IMG/VR virus record: IMGVR_UViG_3300001282_000006
Length of the DNA stretch: 43,871 nucleotides
DNA from: a virus
Taxonomy: Duplodnaviria > Heunggongvirae > Uroviricota > Caudoviricetes
Strand: one strand, 5' to 3'
Part shown: one piece after another, positions 8,169-32,098 of the stretch
Position numbering within the stretch: position 1 is the first letter of the stretch
How the letters are laid out: every line of letters begins with the position of its first letter
Position numbers and translations under genes: made by a program
Notes under the pieces: generated by a model
Database searches by the model: none
What the model was told of the DNA's origin: nothing
The model's input: only the letters and a program-made list of their open reading frames with translations

Positions 8169-8245
8169 ATATTTTTATTATTTTTGTAAAAAAATATCAA
8201 AAGAGATAAAAACTTTTTAATATATACACATACAATAAAATATAT

Positions 8246-8317
8246 TGCGGGGTAGAGCAGGGGTAGCTCGCTAGGCTCATAACCTAGAGGTCGGAGGTTC
8301 GAATCCTTCCCCCGCTA
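8246..8317 (+). tRNA. tRNA-fMet (CAT)
   Basis: Cloverleaf; anticodon arm ctagg-ctCATaa-cctag; mismatched 1:72 pair. Confidence 0.9.
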
Positions 8318-8532: not shown

Positions 8533-8547
8533 GTTTTAAATTAAATT

Positions 8548-8638
8548 GGGAGTGTAACGTCAGCGGCATGTAAGCCGCCCCTCGTAAATATATGGCGTAT
8601 GGCTTGAGGTAACTAGTGTTCGAATCCTGGTACTCCCA
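8548..8638 (+). ncRNA. Atypical tRNA-like gene (no D arm, GTA in a 6-nt loop)
   Basis: Acceptor gggagtg/tactccc, GTTCGAATC T loop, hairpin gcggc-atGTAa-gccgc, long extra arm. Confidence 0.55.
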
Positions 8639-8644
8639 CAAAAT

Positions 8645-8716
8645 GGTCCTGTCGACTAATGGTCAGGTCAACACCCTTTCAAGGTGTAGATGCGGGTTCG
8701 ATCCCCGTCGGGACTA
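8645..8716 (+). tRNA. tRNA-Glu (TTC)
   Basis: Cloverleaf; acacc-ctTTCaa-ggtgt. Confidence 0.92.
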
Positions 8717-8824: not shown

Positions 8825-8855
8825 TTTGGATAATTAAAAAATATCCTTATCTTTG
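8825..8855 (+). promoter_or_regulatory. Bacteroidota-type promoter for the second Glu/Tyr pair
   Basis: TTTG (8825) ... TATCTTTG (8848). Confidence 0.75.
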
Positions 8856-8871
8856 TAAAAGAATAAAAAAT

Positions 8872-8943
8872 GGTCCGTTAGTGAAGCGGTTAACACGCTG
8901 CCCTTTCACGGCAGAGGCACGGGTTCGAATCCCGTACGGACTA
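8872..8943 (+). tRNA. tRNA-Glu (TTC)
   Basis: ctgcc-ctTTCac-ggcag. Confidence 0.93.
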
Positions 8944-8949
8944 CAATAT

Positions 8950-9032
8950 TGGAAGGTGGGTGAGTGGTTAAAACCGACAGACTGTAAATCTGTTCTCGCA
9001 AGAGTACGGGGGTTCGAATCCCTCCCTTCCAA
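8950..9032 (+). tRNA. tRNA-Tyr (GTA)
   Basis: acaga-ctGTAaa-tctgt; long variable arm. Confidence 0.93.
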
Positions 9033-9098
9033 CAAAAATTAAAAATAACTAAAAAGGGAGTTAAAACTTTTTATATATACATTAATATAATTAAAACG

Positions 9099-9917: not shown

Positions 9918-10286
9918 ATGAAAATATGTCCTAATTGTGAAAAGGTTGTTACCAAAAGAAATAACAAATACTGCGATGCTAAGTGTCAAGTAGAATTTGT
10001 AAATAAAGGTATCTATGAGAACATAGAAAATGGAGACACAACTCTTTATCATAAGACATATAAAAGACATCTTATCATCAAATATGGTGAAAAATGTATG
10101 GAATGTGGTTGGGATAAAGTAAATCCATCAACAGGTAAAGTTCCAATACAATTAGAACATATAGATGGTAACTCGGATAATAATTCTTTAGATAATTTGA
10201 AATTACTTTGTCCAAATTGTCATTCACTAACACCAACATATGGTGCTTTGAATAAAGGAAATGGACGAAAGAATAGAAAAAGATAA
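9918..10286 (+). mobile_element. Free-standing HNH homing-endonuclease-like gene inside a tRNA cluster
   Basis: CPNC..YCDAKC zinc finger, CMECG, LEHIDGNSDNNSLDNLKLLCPNCH. Confidence 0.85.
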
Positions 10287-20703: not shown

Positions 20704-21738
20704 ATGCCAAATCCAATAAAATATAATTTATCTGTACAATCAAAAGCTTTGAAAAGAGGAAACTTTTTCATTGGAACAGGTGATGATCCAAAGGGAAATA
20801 CTCCAACAAGTGATTATTGGAATGGCATAACTCCTCCGGTTGGTGGTTATACAATTTATCTTAATAAAGCCAGTCAAGGTCCTAGTATCTATGTTGCTGC
20901 TAACGATTCGGAGTTAATTAGCTTAACAAATAGAATTGCTAGTACTACTTATACAACTGTTGGGGAATGTTTATCTTGGTTTTTAACACAAACCGATAAA
21001 ATGGTTTTGAATAGAGATTATGAAGGTATTAAAACAGATGGTTTAGTATTAAATTTAGATGCTGGATTTGTTTCTTCTTATCCAAAAAATGGAACAACTT
21101 GGTATGATTTAAGTGGAAATGAAAATAATGCCTCACTAGTTAACGGACTTCAATTCAATAATACTAATAGTGGTGAAATTTATATGGACGGAGGTGATGA
21201 GTACATACGAATTCCTCCATCCTCAAATTTACAATCTTATTTTTCAAATAATAGTTTTACCATCACTCTAATAGTAAAATCAGATAATGTTGTTTATCCA
21301 AGAAGTAGATGTCCTATATATGTCAATTCTACTGTAACAAGTGCGTCACAAAAAGGATGGTCAGCTGGTCATGGATCATCAACAACCAGTATAGAAATTA
21401 GGTCTTGTGATGGAACTAATCTTTCAAACGGATTTATTAGTCATTCAGTAGCTGAATCAACAGTTTACATGAGAACATTTACAATTGATAGAACCAGTGG
21501 TGTTTTAACAAAATATTATGTAAATGGATCTTATGTCGGTCAACATAATGCGACTAATGTTACTGGTTCTATTTATGATGGAACTAATACTGATTTTATA
21601 ACAGGCTTTGTTTTTGGTTATGTATGGGGTTGGAGGTTTATAGGTGGAATATATAATATTATGGTATATAACAGATTGTTATCAGAAACTGAAATACTTC
21701 AGAACTTTAATGCTCAGAAATCAAAATTTGGATTATAA
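20704..21738 (+). CDS. LamG-domain fibre/decoration protein, paralog of 18844
   Basis: About 125-aa N terminus nearly identical to 18844; single LamG domain. Confidence 0.8.
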   Translation: MPNPIKYNLSVQSKALKRGNFFIGTGDDPKGNTPTSDYWNGITPPVGGYTIYLNKASQGPSIYVAANDSELISLTNRIASTTYTTVGECLSWFLTQTDKMVLNRDYEGIKTDGLVLNLDAGFVSSYPKNGTTWYDLSGNENNASLVNGLQFNNTNSGEIYMDGGDEYIRIPPSSNLQSYFSNNSFTITLIVKSDNVVYPRSRCPIYVNSTVTSASQKGWSAGHGSSTTSIEIRSCDGTNLSNGFISHSVAESTVYMRTFTIDRTSGVLTKYYVNGSYVGQHNATNVTGSIYDGTNTDFITGFVFGYVWGWRFIGGIYNIMVYNRLLSETEILQNFNAQKSKFGL

Positions 21739-21840
21739 TAAAATTTGGTAGTTTAAAAATACCTCCATATATTTGTAAAACAATTGAGAGAGGCAACGAT
21801 TCAGATACAACTTTCAATTATTTTATAAAAAAATTAGGTG

Positions 21841-21911
21841 AAATTAAAACTTTTATCTATATTTGTATAAAATAAGTCAAAAGGAACAAAAAACTTTTAA
21901 TATATACTATA
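21841..21911 (+). promoter_or_regulatory. Dual-promoter cassette (TATATTTG plus TAATATATA) upstream of leader 5
   Basis: Near-identical to 31739-31810. Confidence 0.75.
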
Positions 21912-22022
21912 ATGAAAACAATGAATTTAAATATGAACATGAATACACTGACAGTGGTGAATAATACGTTATGTATTAGACCGTCTGAGGGCTTCGTCAT
22001 ATCTAAACGATTTGTTAGTTAA
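21912..22022 (+). CDS. Leader peptide 5, MKTMNLNMNMNTLTVVNNTLCIRPSEGFVISKRFVS
   Basis: First 23 codons use only M,K,T,N,L,V,C,I,R; GTCTGAGGG (21983-21991) is the exact complement of the terminator arm CCCTCAGAC. Confidence 0.85.
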   Translation: MKTMNLNMNMNTLTVVNNTLCIRPSEGFVISKRFVS

Positions 22023-22050
22023 TATAACAAATTTTAATAAAGAATACTCG

Positions 22051-22083
22051 AAACCCTCAGACACAAAATCTGAGGGTTTTTTT
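22051..22083 (+). terminator. Intrinsic terminator of attenuator 5
   Basis: aaaccctcaga-cacaaaa-tctgagggttt followed by a T run. Confidence 0.9.
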
Positions 22084-22098
22084 ATGCTCTTAAAACAA

Positions 22099-22183
22099 CG
22101 GTAGGTACCCGAGCGGTCTTCAGGGACTAGTCTGATACACTAGGTGAGAAATCACAACGTGGGTTCAAATCCCACCCTACCGA
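22099..22183 (+). tRNA. tRNA-Ile (GAT) with long variable arm
   Basis: ctagt-ctGATac-actag; V arm gtga-gaaa-tcac. Confidence 0.8.
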
Positions 22184-22189
22184 CAAAAT

Positions 22190-22262
22190 GGTTTCCTCGT
22201 CCAACTGGATAGGACATCGCTCTTCTAAAGCGAGAATATGGGTTCGAATCCCGTGGAGACTA
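22190..22262 (+). tRNA. tRNA-Arg (TCT)
   Basis: tcgct-ctTCTaa-agcga. Confidence 0.92.
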
Positions 22263-22269
22263 CAAATAT

Positions 22270-22341
22270 TCCTCGATAGCTCAGCGGTAGAGCAAACGAC
22301 TGTTAATCGTTAGGTCCCAGGTTCGAATCCTGGTCGGGGAG
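22270..22341 (+). tRNA. tRNA-Asn (GTT)
   Basis: aacga-ctGTTaa-tcgtt; G73. Confidence 0.95.
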
Positions 22342-22348
22342 CAAAAAT

Positions 22349-22431
22349 GCCGAAGTGGTGGAATGGTAGACACGCTAGCCTTAGGAGCTAGTACCCGAAA
22401 GGGTGTGTGGGTTCGAGTCCCACCTTCGGTA
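22349..22431 (+). tRNA. tRNA-Leu (TAG)
   Basis: ctagc-ctTAGga-gctag; type II body. Confidence 0.95.
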
Positions 22432-22436
22432 CAAAT

Positions 22437-22522
22437 TGATGGGTGTCCTGAGCGGCGAAAGGACCTGGCTGTTAACCAGACGACATTAAAGTCCACCGTG
22501 GGTTCGAGTCCCACCTCATCAG
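22437..22522 (+). tRNA. tRNA-Asn (GTT) with long variable region
   Basis: ctgg-ctGTTaa-ccag; 17-nt variable region; G73. Confidence 0.78.
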
Positions 22523-22528
22523 CAAGAT

Positions 22529-22601
22529 AGTCCTGTAGCTCAATCGGGGGAGCGCCACTGTTACATAGTGGAGGGAGTCGGATCGTAACCGACCGGGACT
22601 A
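22529..22601 (+). tRNA. tRNA-Val (TAC)
   Basis: ccact-gtTACat-agtgg; T loop ATCGTAA. Confidence 0.88.
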
Positions 22602-22607
22602 CAAAAT

Positions 22608-22681
22608 TGGAATATAGCTCAACTGGTTAGAGCATTCGCCTGATACGCGAAAGGTTGTAGGTTCGAGTCCTACTATTCCAA
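22608..22681 (+). tRNA. tRNA-Ile (GAT)
   Basis: tcgc-ctGATac-gcga; canonical body. Confidence 0.95.
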
Positions 22682-22686
22682 CAAAT

Positions 22687-22769
22687 GGTACTGTGGCCGA
22701 GTGGTGTCGAAAGACGAGAGGCACAGATCTGCAAAATCTGTCACACTGGTTCGAGCCCAGTCAGTACCT
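22687..22769 (+). tRNA. tRNA-Cys (GCA) with D-loop hairpin insertion
   Basis: cagat-ctGCAaa-atctg; U73; gtc-gaaa-gac in the D loop. Confidence 0.88.
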
Positions 22770-22774
22770 CAAAC

Positions 22775-22846
22775 GCTTCTTAAGCATTAATGGTGATGCG
22801 CTAGTCTTGTAAACTAGAGAAATCGGATCGTTACCGGTAAGAAGCT
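22775..22846 (+). tRNA. tRNA-Thr (TGT)
   Basis: ctagt-ctTGTaa-actag; T loop ATCGTTA. Confidence 0.9.
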
Positions 22847-22851
22847 CAAAT

Positions 22852-22997
22852 CAGTAGGACCCTATATTAGGTGGTAACTTCTAGAGAAGCCACATAAAGA
22901 ACTGGTCCGGGTTAAAAACCAAACTTGATTATTTGATATTCTAGAAAATGTCATTTAGTTCGGATTGGGAAGGTGGGTTCGATTCCCACCCTACTGT
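22852..22997 (+). ncRNA. 146-nt tRNA-like RNA (acceptor and T arm enclosing a large structured insert)
   Basis: cagtagg (22852) pairs with cctactg (22990); perfect T arm gtggg-ttcgatt-cccac; several internal hairpins. Confidence 0.6.
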
Positions 22998-23003
22998 CAA
23001 AAT

Positions 23004-23075
23004 TGCCTTGTAGCTCAATGGGAGAGCACTTCCTTGACATGGAAGAGGTAGTGGGATCGTTACCCACCAAGGCAA
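23004..23075 (+). tRNA. tRNA-Val (GAC)
   Basis: cttcc-ttGACat-ggaag; T loop ATCGTTA. Confidence 0.9.
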
Positions 23076-23100
23076 CAAAATAATGGATGGTGATTAAGAG

Positions 23101-23173
23101 TGTTACTTCGTGAAATGGTATACACATTTGTCTTAAAAACAAACTTTTGAAGGTTCAAGTCCTTCAGTAAAAT
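23101..23173 (+). tRNA. Degenerate tRNA with TAA (Leu) anticodon but short variable loop
   Basis: Leu-type D arm gtg-aaatggtata-cac; tttgt-ctTAAaa-acaaa; T arm gaagg-ttcaagt-ccttc; one acceptor mismatch. Confidence 0.55.
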
Positions 23174-23200
23174 CACTCTTTAGACTTTCCTCCATTATAT

Positions 23201-23284
23201 GCCGATGTGGCTCAGTGGCGACAGCACTGGTTTTGTAAACCAGAGACGAATAGTCCAACGGGGGTTCGAGTCCCTCCATCGGCT
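23201..23284 (+). tRNA. tRNA-Thr (TGT) with long variable region
   Basis: ctggt-ttTGTaa-accag; variable region agacgaatagtccaac. Confidence 0.82.
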
Positions 23285-23299
23285 CAAAATAAATCACCT

Positions 23300-23383
23300 G
23301 CCTGGGTGGTGGAACGGTAGACACGAGGGACTTAAAATCCCTTGCCCCAAAAGGGCGTGAGGGTTCGAGTCCCTCTCCAGGTA
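23300..23383 (+). tRNA. tRNA-Leu (TAA)
   Basis: aggga-ctTAAaa-tccct; type II body. Confidence 0.95.
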
Positions 23384-23414
23384 CTGAAGTGAAACGAAAG
23401 TTCACTACAAATAT

Positions 23415-23501
23415 CGCGGGGTAGAGTAGAGGTCAAACTCACTGGGCTCATAACCCAGGGTTGCGCAAGTGACACGTCAGGTTCGAATCCTGCCCCCGCT
23501 A
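23415..23501 (+). tRNA. Initiator-type tRNA-Met (CAT) with long variable arm
   Basis: C1 mismatch; ctggg-ctCATaa-cccag (3 GC pairs); V arm gttgc-gcaa-gtgac. Confidence 0.8.
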
Positions 23502-23507
23502 CAACAA

Positions 23508-23580
23508 GCAGTTATCGTATAGTCGGTGATTACACCACCTTGGTACGGTGGAGACTCCGGTTCGACTCCGGATGATTGCT
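23508..23580 (+). tRNA. tRNA-Thr (GGT)
   Basis: ccacc-ttGGTac-ggtgg. Confidence 0.92.
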
Positions 23581-23585
23581 CAGAT

Positions 23586-23666
23586 GCCCAGATGGTGGAA
23601 TGGTAGACACTCCGGTCTAAGAAGCCGGTGCCGCAAGGCGTGAGAGTTCGAGTCTCTCTTTGGGTA
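23586..23666 (+). tRNA. tRNA-Leu (AAG)
   Basis: ccggt-ctAAGaa-gccgg; Leu-type D loop, V arm and A73. Confidence 0.88.
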
Positions 23667-23671
23667 CAAAT

Positions 23672-23741
23672 GCCGTGGCTTAGTGGAAAAGAGCCTACTC
23701 TCATAAGGTGGGTTAAGTGAGTTCGAACCTCATACACGGTA
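23672..23741 (+). tRNA. Degenerate tRNA, 8-nt loop CTTCATAA (Met CAT plus one nt, or TCA)
   Basis: Intact T arm and D arm; about 3 nt missing after the acceptor 5' strand. Confidence 0.5.
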
Positions 23742-23746
23742 CAAAT

Positions 23747-23827
23747 GTCAGAATGGTGGAATGGTATACACACTGGTTTCAAAAGCCAGCGCCTAATGGT
23801 ATGAGAGTTCAAGTCTCTCTTCTGATA
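23747..23827 (+). tRNA. tRNA-Leu (CAA)
   Basis: ctggt-ttCAAaa-gccag; type II body. Confidence 0.92.
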
Positions 23828-23849
23828 CTCGATAAAAAAGCCAATAAAA

Positions 23850-24062
23850 ATGGAAAAGAATGAAATTAAAAAAGCTCTGTATAAACAAAACCCAAAGGCT
23901 ACATTTAAGTTTATCAGAAAAGAAGTAGCTTATTACTTAACAATTATCGAATCTGAAAGTGAACCAGTTGAAATTAGATTTGAGGTTCCAGTATCAGATA
24001 TGGGTGATGCTGATTTTGAATACTTAATGGATTCAAAGTATATGATAAGATGGATATCTTAG
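23850..24062 (+). CDS. Hypothetical protein
   Basis: 70 aa ORF with normal codon pattern directly after the tRNA array. Confidence 0.65.
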   Translation: MEKNEIKKALYKQNPKATFKFIRKEVAYYLTIIESESEPVEIRFEVPVSDMGDADFEYLMDSKYMIRWIS

Positions 24063-24873: not shown

Positions 24874-26346
24874 ATGAAAAACATCGTAACAAGAATCGCA
24901 CCCTCACCAACTGGACCTTTTGCTCATATTGGTAATGTAAGAACACTATTATATAACTACTTTCTTGCTAAGAAAAGTGGTGGTAAATTCTTTGTGAGAT
25001 TGGAAGACACCGACAGAGACCGTTATACGGCTTCGTTTCTAACATATTTCAAAGATATGTGTGATTGGCTTGGTATAGTACCAGATGGTTCTTATTGGAA
25101 CCCAGATCCTTCTATCGGCTCTTTCACTCAATCAACAAGAGATTATTCTGATAAAGTTAAATTTTTATTAGATAACGAATTTGCTTATTATGCTTTTGAT
25201 TCTAAAGATGATTTAGACTTGGCTCATAAAACAATTCCTAACTTCAAATACGATGCTACAACTCGTATGACTATGAAGAACTCATTAACAATGACTAAAT
25301 CGGATGTTGATGCGGCTATTGCTACAGGTAACTATGTTATTCGTTTTGCTGTAACTCCAGATGTTGATGTTGTAATCAACGATGCTATTTTAGGAGATAT
25401 CACAATCAGTACTAATACTTTAGATGATAAAGTTTTGATTAAGTCAAATGGTATTGGTTCTTACCACCTTTGTAATGTTTGTGACGACCACGATATGGGT
25501 GTTACTCACGTTCTTAGAGGTAACGAGTGGGTAAACTCAACTCCTTTCCATGTTATTCTTTACAAGGCTTTTGGTTGGGATGTTCCAACATTCGCTCATC
25601 TACCTTTAATTATGAATCCAGATGGTAAAGGTAAGTTGTCTAAGAGAACTGCTATGAAGTATGGTATTCCAATTGCGCCACTTGGTTACACTGACGAAAA
25701 CGGTGTTTACAATGATGGTTGGAAAGATTTAGGTTTTGACCCAAAAGCATTTATGAACTATCTTGCCTTAATTGGTTGGAATCCAGGTGCTGAAGTTGAA
25801 ATTATGTCTATGGATGATATGATTAACTCATTCTCTTTAGATAGAGTTCACAAGGCTGGGGCTCGTTTCGATATGGATAAAGCAAAGTGGATGAACTCAC
25901 AATATCTTAAATTAACAGACAATAAAGACTTAATGCCTTATGTCCATGTAGTTGATGATAGATACTCTGATGATAAGTTAGATGCTATTGTTTCATTGGC
26001 TAAAGATAGAGCTGACTTCAAAACTGACTTAAACAAAATTGTTAAATTGTTCTTTGATTTACCAACTATCGATGATAGAAGTAAGTTAGATGATAACTAT
26101 ACAAAAGTTATGTCAGACTTCATCAATAAGATTGATACAATCAACTTTGATGATACGAACTCAATCAAAGACACTATCTCAGCAATCTGTAATGATTTAG
26201 GTGTTAAGATGGGTAAAGTAATGCCTGGTTTAAGAATGGCTTTAGTATCTGGTATTGCGGGTCCGGACTTAATGACAACAATGTCAATTTTAGGTAAAGA
26301 CCAAACTAAGTTGAGAATTAACAACTCGATTGTAGTAATGGCTTAA
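24874..26346 (+). CDS. gltX: Glutamate--tRNA ligase
   Basis: RIAPSPTG..HIGN, RLEDTD, THVLRGNEW, FAHLPLI, KLSKR, C-terminal anticodon domain. Confidence 0.95.
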   Translation: MKNIVTRIAPSPTGPFAHIGNVRTLLYNYFLAKKSGGKFFVRLEDTDRDRYTASFLTYFKDMCDWLGIVPDGSYWNPDPSIGSFTQSTRDYSDKVKFLLDNEFAYYAFDSKDDLDLAHKTIPNFKYDATTRMTMKNSLTMTKSDVDAAIATGNYVIRFAVTPDVDVVINDAILGDITISTNTLDDKVLIKSNGIGSYHLCNVCDDHDMGVTHVLRGNEWVNSTPFHVILYKAFGWDVPTFAHLPLIMNPDGKGKLSKRTAMKYGIPIAPLGYTDENGVYNDGWKDLGFDPKAFMNYLALIGWNPGAEVEIMSMDDMINSFSLDRVHKAGARFDMDKAKWMNSQYLKLTDNKDLMPYVHVVDDRYSDDKLDAIVSLAKDRADFKTDLNKIVKLFFDLPTIDDRSKLDDNYTKVMSDFINKIDTINFDDTNSIKDTISAICNDLGVKMGKVMPGLRMALVSGIAGPDLMTTMSILGKDQTKLRINNSIVVMA

Positions 26347-31732: not shown

Positions 31733-31810
31733 TTTGACAAATTAAAACTTTGTTGTATATTTGTATAAAATAAGAACAAAAGGAAGAAATCCTTTTTAAT
31801 ATATACTGAA
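31733..31810 (+). promoter_or_regulatory. Dual-promoter cassette upstream of leader 3
   Basis: TTTG (31733), TATATTTG (31756), TAATATATA (31798). Confidence 0.78.
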
Positions 31811-31966: not shown

Positions 31967-31981
31967 GTTTTTAGTAAAAAA

Positions 31982-32055
31982 CGGGTAGTGACTAAGGTTT
32001 TAAGCACGGGGGCTCTGGAGGCTTCAGTTAGTCGGTTCGATTCCGACCTACCCGA
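31982..32055 (+). tRNA. Atypical tRNA, anticodon CTG (Gln) or TGG (Pro) depending on register
   Basis: Perfect acceptor cgggtag/ctacccg and T arm; anticodon region ggggg-ctctggag-gcttc. Confidence 0.6.
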
Positions 32056-32098
32056 CAAAATACTCTTTAGAGAATAGAGTAAAAGAATTCTCAAATAC

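Follow-up and report, generated by a model that had tools for sequence, protein, structure and literature searches.

A 43,871-nt stretch of a huge phage genome (Caudoviricetes; IMG/VR record IMGVR_UViG_3300001282_000006; 30% GC), referred to here as the window, contains three clusters of tRNA genes together with one glutamyl-tRNA synthetase (GluRS) gene and one glutaminyl-tRNA synthetase (GlnRS) gene. The subject of this analysis is the region immediately upstream of an array of 19 tRNA units (22099–23828), in which a short leader open reading frame (ORF) lies after a Bacteroidetes-type promoter box and before a strong intrinsic terminator. All the features described for this locus are on the plus strand.

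The tRNA genes were called by ARAGORN at default settings and by Infernal. ARAGORN found 17 tRNAs in the array: Ile-gat (two), Arg-tct, Asn-gtt (two), Leu-tag, Leu-taa (two), Leu-aag, Leu-caa, Val-tac, Val-gac, Thr-tgt (two), Thr-ggt and Met-cat (two). Infernal added a Cys-GCA gene (22687–22769; 53.8 bits), which has the anticodon loop CUGCAAA and a 13-nt insert in the D loop. The remaining unit (22848–23003) is tRNA-like, with an acceptor stem, a T arm and a large internal insert, but no anticodon could be assigned to it; the match to the Rfam model was limited to the T arm. Relaxed ARAGORN settings were tried on the odd units, gave unreliable assignments and were not used. No protein gene is present in the unit.

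Short and long tRNAs with the same anticodon occur as pairs in this array (array 5) at 22099–23500: Ile-gat (86 and 75 nt), Asn-gtt (73 and 87 nt), Thr-tgt (73 and 85 nt), Leu-taa (74 and 85 nt) and Met-cat (85 and 74 nt). The pairs are conserved among the relatives. A long variable arm outside Leu, Ser and Tyr anticodons is unusual.

The leader ORF (21912–22022) consists of 36 codons and a TAA stop codon (22020–22022). It starts with ATG at 21912, and the encoded peptide is MKTMNLNMNMNTLTVVNNTLCIRPSEGFVISKRFVS. Codon 2 is AAA. It is followed by ACA, ATG, AAT, TTA, AAT, ATG, AAC, ATG, AAT, ACA and CTG, and then by ACA, GTG, GTG, AAT, AAT, ACG, TTA, TGT, ATT and AGA, which completes codons 3–23. 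This stretch (21918–21980), designated the sensor run, contains Asn six times, Thr four times, Met and Leu three times each, Val twice, and Cys, Ile and Arg. All of its codons (21/21) can be decoded by the anticodons of the array that follows.

Codons readable by the array make up 39–40% of the codons of this phage (background 0.39). The sensor run was the longest run of such codons over all six frames of the window, the second longest being 15, and the expected number of runs of at least 21 in the window was 2.6e-4. The leader ORF ranked first among 241 short ORFs. All five leaders found in the window open with a similar stretch of the MK(N/T)xNxN type. The first eight or so codons of the leader are therefore in part a family heritage and not independent evidence for the match. 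After removal of the first nine codons, 14/14 (codons 10–23) still matched (0.39^14, or about 2e-6 by our own calculation).

Several of the sensor codons are rare in this phage and conserved. These are the GTG GTG pair (GTG is 4% of Val codons), CTG (1% of Leu) and ACG (2% of Thr). Their presence fits a sensor built to be decoded slowly. Rare codons (CUA) are also found in the classical leu leader.

The terminator (22050–22083) is formed by a hairpin at 22050–22080, with a 12-bp stem and a 7-nt loop, and a run of seven T residues at 22077–22083. Its fold gave −17.2 kcal/mol (z −5.8). The leader segment GTCTGAGGGCTTCG (21983–21996) was designated the 5′ strand of an antiterminator, and its 3′ strand (22049–22062) coincides with the terminator's 5′ arm. 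Within these strands, GTCTGAGGG (21983–21991) is perfectly complementary over 9 bp to CCCTCAGAC (22054–22062), and the helix gains 4 bp (TTCG/CGAA) beyond one mismatch. The duplex between the leader strand and the terminator arm gave −21.1 kcal/mol (z −7.9), compared with −6.2 ± 1.9 kcal/mol for 500 dinucleotide shuffles. The whole antiterminator (21983–22062), with its 9 + 4-bp helix, gave −27.9 kcal/mol (z −6.8). Because 22050–22062 is common to both folds, the antiterminator and the terminator are mutually exclusive. An inner 9-bp hairpin (22009–22033) folds in the antiterminator loop, and the stop codon of the leader lies in its apical loop.

The original prediction was made from the letters of the window, and all its items were confirmed at the coordinates given. 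It listed 19 units for eight amino acids (Met, Thr, Asn, Leu, Val, Cys, Ile and Arg), and both numbers proved correct, with one of the units lacking an assignable anticodon. It also gave the codons used before 21983 as ATG, ACA/ACG, AAT/AAC, TTA/CTG, GTG, TGT, ATT and AGA plus one AAA, and this was confirmed codon by codon. The pairing of a sole Arg codon, AGA, with a sole Arg anticodon, TCT, was borne out by the single Arg-tct call, and the 9-bp perfect complement of the terminator arm was found at 21983 as described.

A pattern scan located the box TATATTTG at 21858–21865. It is of the −7 type TAnnTTTG, the promoter consensus of Bacteroidetes. A second copy is present at 21768–21775, and boxes of this type are also found upstream of the other tRNA units (8179, 8360, 8848 and 31756). 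The scan found no box between 21858 and 23975, and thus none between the terminator and the array or inside the array, so that an internal promoter of the TAnnTTTG type was rejected. The first tRNA starts at 22099, 15 nt past the T run of the terminator. Because of this short gap and the absence of a box from 21858 to 23975, transcription of the array would depend on read-through of the terminator.

A second conserved element, AAAACTTTTAATATATAC (21889–21907), was detected by regex scan between the box and the leader. It ends 4 nt upstream of the leader ATG and is conserved in the orthologs. Strong matches were obtained only at 8213, 9066, 21893 and 31792, all in tRNA units. The corresponding motif AAAACTTTTTAATATATAC spans 8209–8227, 9062–9080, 21889–21907 and 31788–31806. 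It ends 3–5 nt before a leader ATG in three cases, and in one case it lies about 20 nt before a leaderless tRNA-Met (8246). The motif may be a second promoter, possibly phage-specific, or it may mark the start of a near-leaderless mRNA.

The conservation of the system was examined in related genomes. The public genomes nearest to the window are LR756502 (642 kb) and LR745206 (635 kb), which are 72–76% identical to it in nucleotide sequence across this region; LR756501 (735 kb) is related at a greater distance. Closer kin were found in IMG/VR, namely two fragments (55 and 75 kb) and one 476-kb contig (97% complete). The LR genomes were assigned to the Mahaphage clade, with predicted replication in Bacteroidetes (Al-Shayeb et al. 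2020; PMC7162821). An IMG/VR synteny search with the protein encoded upstream (20704–21738) returned two loci, with the array at neither.

The leader is retained at the orthologous arrays of five related huge-phage genomes. Its reading frame is kept in six genomes, in which the insertions and deletions are multiples of three. The six orthologs keep the sensor, with the changes K2T, N9T, M10L, N to L and N to I and one- and two-codon indels. Every one of these changes is in frame and inside the set of eight amino acids. In three genomes codon 2 is Thr, which brings the whole sensor into the set. The Arg-TCT genes of LR756502 and the 476-kb contig were skipped by ARAGORN because of their long variable arms, and were read by eye from the sequence.

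In the ortholog alignment the antiterminator pairing was present in 88% of the cells, versus at most 56% when the partners were slid. One compensatory change, from C-G to U-A, was found in the main helix. Covariation within the six orthologs was rejected as evidence on its own, since they represent too few lineages, and 61 of 500 shuffles reached the observed value.

The other leaders of the window also match their arrays. The leader with YYYEGE precedes Glu/Tyr genes, that with GGGAGA precedes Gly/Ala, that with PQPQ..DQDPD precedes Asp/Pro, and that with QYQQQQ precedes Gln; the eight-amino-acid leader is the fifth. LR756502, LR745206 and the 476-kb contig contain the same five attenuators and two more, one with ..KHKHFSK..KWF.. 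before Phe/His/Lys(/Trp) genes, and one with ..SSRSRSS.. before Arg/Ser genes. The seven attenuators combined cover all 20 amino acids.

The original prediction had proposed a permutation test of leader amino acids against array anticodons. The true assignment was the single best one in the window (1/120), in LR756502 (1/5040), in LR745206 (1/5040) and in LR756501 (1/24). For the pairing between the 3′ portion of a leader and the arm of its own terminator, the same treatment ranked the true assignment 2/120, 1/5040, 2/5040, 1/24 and 1/5040. For this own-terminator pairing Fisher's method gave p = 1.5e-15 over 22 attenuators, which are incompletely independent. A chance or low-complexity origin of the codon match was ruled out by the run-length scan, the short-ORF ranking and the permutation tests.

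LR756501 groups its tRNA genes differently. There, the Leu-rich MNNILHINLLNSLCLLGIKLIG precedes five Leu genes, and MNFRIINMIQEQMQQIQNLIGGTISY (..IINMIQEQMQQIQ..) precedes Met/Gln/Ile-tat/Glu. Another leader, with ..TPAPAVAFRRGTGTGTGTCVPAGCG.., precedes Arg/Thr/Val/Ala/Gly/Pro, and one with ..SKHSKHFSSSSKWF.. precedes Trp/His/Phe/Lys/Ser. Because the leaders change to match when the tRNAs are regrouped, leader composition is read here as tracking array content. The original prediction had named as contrary evidence a leader that stays the same at arrays of different tRNA content; the leaders of LR756501 behaved in the opposite way.

We interpreted the element as a ribosome-mediated (leader-peptide) transcription attenuator of the trp/ilv type, whose output would be a tRNA operon and whose effect would be feedback on decoding capacity. 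We place the probability of this reading at roughly 0.78. The phage would then probably make these tRNAs only when ribosomes read the sensor codons slowly.

The predicted sequence of events is as follows. A transcript would start at the host-type promoter, and the 36-codon leader would be translated co-transcriptionally. An unhindered ribosome would cover 21983–21996 and halt at the stop codon, inside what would otherwise be the antiterminator loop. The local terminator hairpin (22050–22083) would then win, leaving the 19 tRNA genes off. With scarcity of a matching charged tRNA, on the other hand, decoding would be slow at any of the sensor codons, and the lagging ribosome would leave 21983–21996 free. 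Such scarcity might arise where host tRNAs are ill-suited to a genome of 30% GC, are degraded, or are cut by a defence nuclease. The free strand would capture 22049–22062 as it emerges, the terminator would lose its 5′ arm, and RNA polymerase would enter the array. The new tRNAs would end the stall and close a negative feedback loop.

Several observations weigh against this interpretation. One concerns the position of the leader stop, which is 24 nt beyond the antiterminator strand, compared with −10 to 13 nt in the other four leaders. Because of this distance, termination in the unstalled state would, as a speculative idea, hinge on a putative ribosome seated inside the loop.

The sensor itself raises further objections. 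Cys, Ile and Arg appear only once each in it; in classical attenuators the regulatory codons come in runs. AGA begins 5 nt and ATT 8 nt upstream of the antiterminator strand, and the helicase of the ribosome works about 11 nt away from the codon in the P site. A ribosome halted with AGA or ATT in the A site should therefore mask part of that strand, which makes the Arg input doubtful, and perhaps the Ile input too. The original prediction had likened the leader to an OR gate over eight tRNA pools. That interpretation is supported, with Arg, and perhaps Ile, as doubtful inputs; the gate would follow from the geometry of the strands.

The array of LR756502 is without a recognisable elongator tRNA-Met, though its leader retains two internal ATG codons, which we regard as a small blemish. 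Some tRNA units have no leader at all, namely the tRNA-Met at 8246, a second Glu-Tyr pair at 8872, and the L015 array of LR756501.

Finally, the minimum-energy fold of the full length without a ribosome was the antiterminator, unlike in the trp model. A hairpin of the 1:2 type (21948–21958 with 21979–21990) was weak and not better than shuffles (z +0.5). Because of these two features, the predicted default in the absence of translation is read-through (ON), which would be a plausible fail-safe.

This default leads to the first alternative, namely that the terminator depends on translation as such. It would report general translation capacity (ribosome availability, initiation or global inhibition) and not the supply of specific tRNAs, and an untranslated leader would turn all the arrays on. 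The fold without a ribosome would allow this, since loss of translation alone would give read-through, and the MK(N/T)xNxN-type start is common to all the leaders. This alternative leaves unexplained why each leader has the amino-acid composition of its own array, and why the leaders change when the arrays are regrouped. We consider it unlikely.

Another alternative keeps the same mechanism, with amino-acid starvation (uncharged tRNA) as the signal, as in biosynthetic operons, in place of tRNA abundance. To a stalled ribosome, a missing tRNA and an uncharged one are indistinguishable. Downstream of attenuator 4 come two tRNA-Gln genes and the GlnRS gene, and the GluRS gene is nearby. Starvation cannot be cured by extra tRNA, however, and such feedback would be futile for a unit of 19 tRNA genes without any synthetase or biosynthetic gene. 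This alternative appears even less probable than the preceding one. Both synthetase genes (GluRS, 24874–26346; GlnRS, 32644–34248) were identified by the Pfam family tRNA-synt_1c, and the GlnRS gene comes directly after the two attenuated tRNA-Gln genes.

The remaining alternative is that the short ORFs encode functional small peptides or are untranslated. The terminator would then end the upstream unit, and the codons would match the array as a side effect of composition or common descent; the shared motif of AT-rich first codons agrees with this. The alternative is made very improbable by the run statistics, by the permutation tests for four genomes, by the substitutions within the set, by the complementarity of leader segments to their own terminators, and by the short gap before the first tRNA, which leaves no space for a promoter.

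The attenuator reading was compared with known systems. The leaders of ilvGMEDA (Leu/Val/Ile) and thr (Thr/Ile) also contain codons for more than one amino acid in a short translated leader, translation being predicted in the present case. They also have an intrinsic terminator and a mutually exclusive antiterminator that uses the 5′ arm of the terminator, and read-through follows when the ribosome stalls at any of the regulatory codons, as is proposed here. On the other hand, the targets here are tRNAs and not biosynthetic enzymes, and the leader lists eight amino acids where theirs list two or three. A convincing 1:2 anti-antiterminator is lacking in the phage element, which sets its predicted default apart from theirs, and there is no sequence or Rfam-family kinship with them.

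The pheST attenuator of Escherichia coli (pheM leader) is similar in that cognate codons govern part of the translation machinery, namely Phe-tRNA synthetase. There, a synthetase protein gene and one amino acid are involved, whereas here it is the tRNA genes themselves. T-box riboswitches also respond to the state of one particular tRNA and operate a terminator/antiterminator switch ahead of translation-related genes. No translation is involved there: the RNA itself contacts the uncharged tRNA by means of a specifier codon and the T-box sequence, whereas the sensor here is an ORF. Stringent and growth-rate control of bacterial tRNA genes, by ppGpp/DksA and Fis at promoters, likewise fits tRNA synthesis to translational demand. 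Unlike the phage element, this control is global, acts at transcription initiation, and has no specificity for codons or tRNA sets.

Searches against Rfam at the gathering score found tRNA alone in the window, with no leader family (His_leader, Phe_leader, Thr_leader, Leu_leader or Trp_leader) and no T-box. A permissive search gave His_leader at 23 bits (threshold 49) and Phe_leader at 22.7 bits (threshold 55), which are weak, generic attenuator-like matches. No T-box match was obtained in 21800–22100 at E values up to 10.

The short ORF, the cognate codons, the terminator before the first gene and the mutually exclusive antiterminator are features of a leader-peptide attenuator that are present here. 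The target differs, as the regulated genes encode neither biosynthetic enzymes nor an aminoacyl-tRNA synthetase. Because the regulated unit consists of tRNA genes and no protein gene, the element is a variant of the leader-peptide attenuator and not a plain member.

Attenuation by leader peptides is long known from amino-acid operons and from one synthetase operon, whereas tRNA genes have been regarded as controlled at promoters. If the present reading is true, a codon-specific feedback acting on the supply of tRNAs would bring a new regulatory logic to the translation apparatus. The eight-amino-acid leader would show the reach of multivalent sensing. The leaders would also bear on why phages carry tRNAs (codon-usage compensation, host shut-off or defence nucleases), since they would name the decoding failures that the phage is built to sense.

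The balance tips slightly toward a broader picture, in which Mahaphage-type huge phages would run a complete, demand-driven tRNA supply, with seven attenuators for 20 amino acids and each block turned on only when its codons stall ribosomes. The loss of host tRNAs, cleavage by host anticodon nucleases included, could then be detected and made good one codon at a time, and no known attenuator would be more multivalent than the eight-input leader. Leaders that track array content may help to work out which codons the odd phage tRNAs serve, and the design is a possible tool, as a compact and reprogrammable sensor of decoding speed. A full-text literature search, in which subscription journals were thinly covered so that absence is not proof, turned up no account of tRNA genes under attenuation. 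In the huge-phage paper (PMC7162821), words beginning with "attenuat" do not occur.

Other tRNA units showed features of their own. The second Glu-Tyr pair (8848–9033) has its own TAnnTTTG promoter and no leader, so that the same pair is held as one attenuated and one apparently unregulated copy. More tRNA-like units, without an ARAGORN call at default settings, lie right after terminators 1 and 3 (8540–8645 and 31975–32060). An HNH endonuclease ORF is located within array 2 (9918–10286), and an inserted ORF of roughly 1 kb interrupts array 5 in the 476-kb relative (L029, 1386–2190). These insertions suggest mobile-element traffic inside the tRNA arrays. LR756501 contains two neighbouring tRNA genes with the anticodon CTA, of the amber-suppressor type (L021, 1586–1739).

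A comparable layout was seen in the cultured Caulobacter phage phiCbK (JX100813; L036, 2541–2770 and 4342–4503), which makes it a possible experimental model. Short ORFs and annotated terminators are found there immediately upstream of tRNA blocks. The Ser/Leu/Pro/Lys-rich gp083 lies upstream of Pro, Lys, Leu and Ser tRNA genes, and an ORF with ..QFVRQIQVV.. lies upstream of Phe, Val, Ile and Gln tRNA genes.

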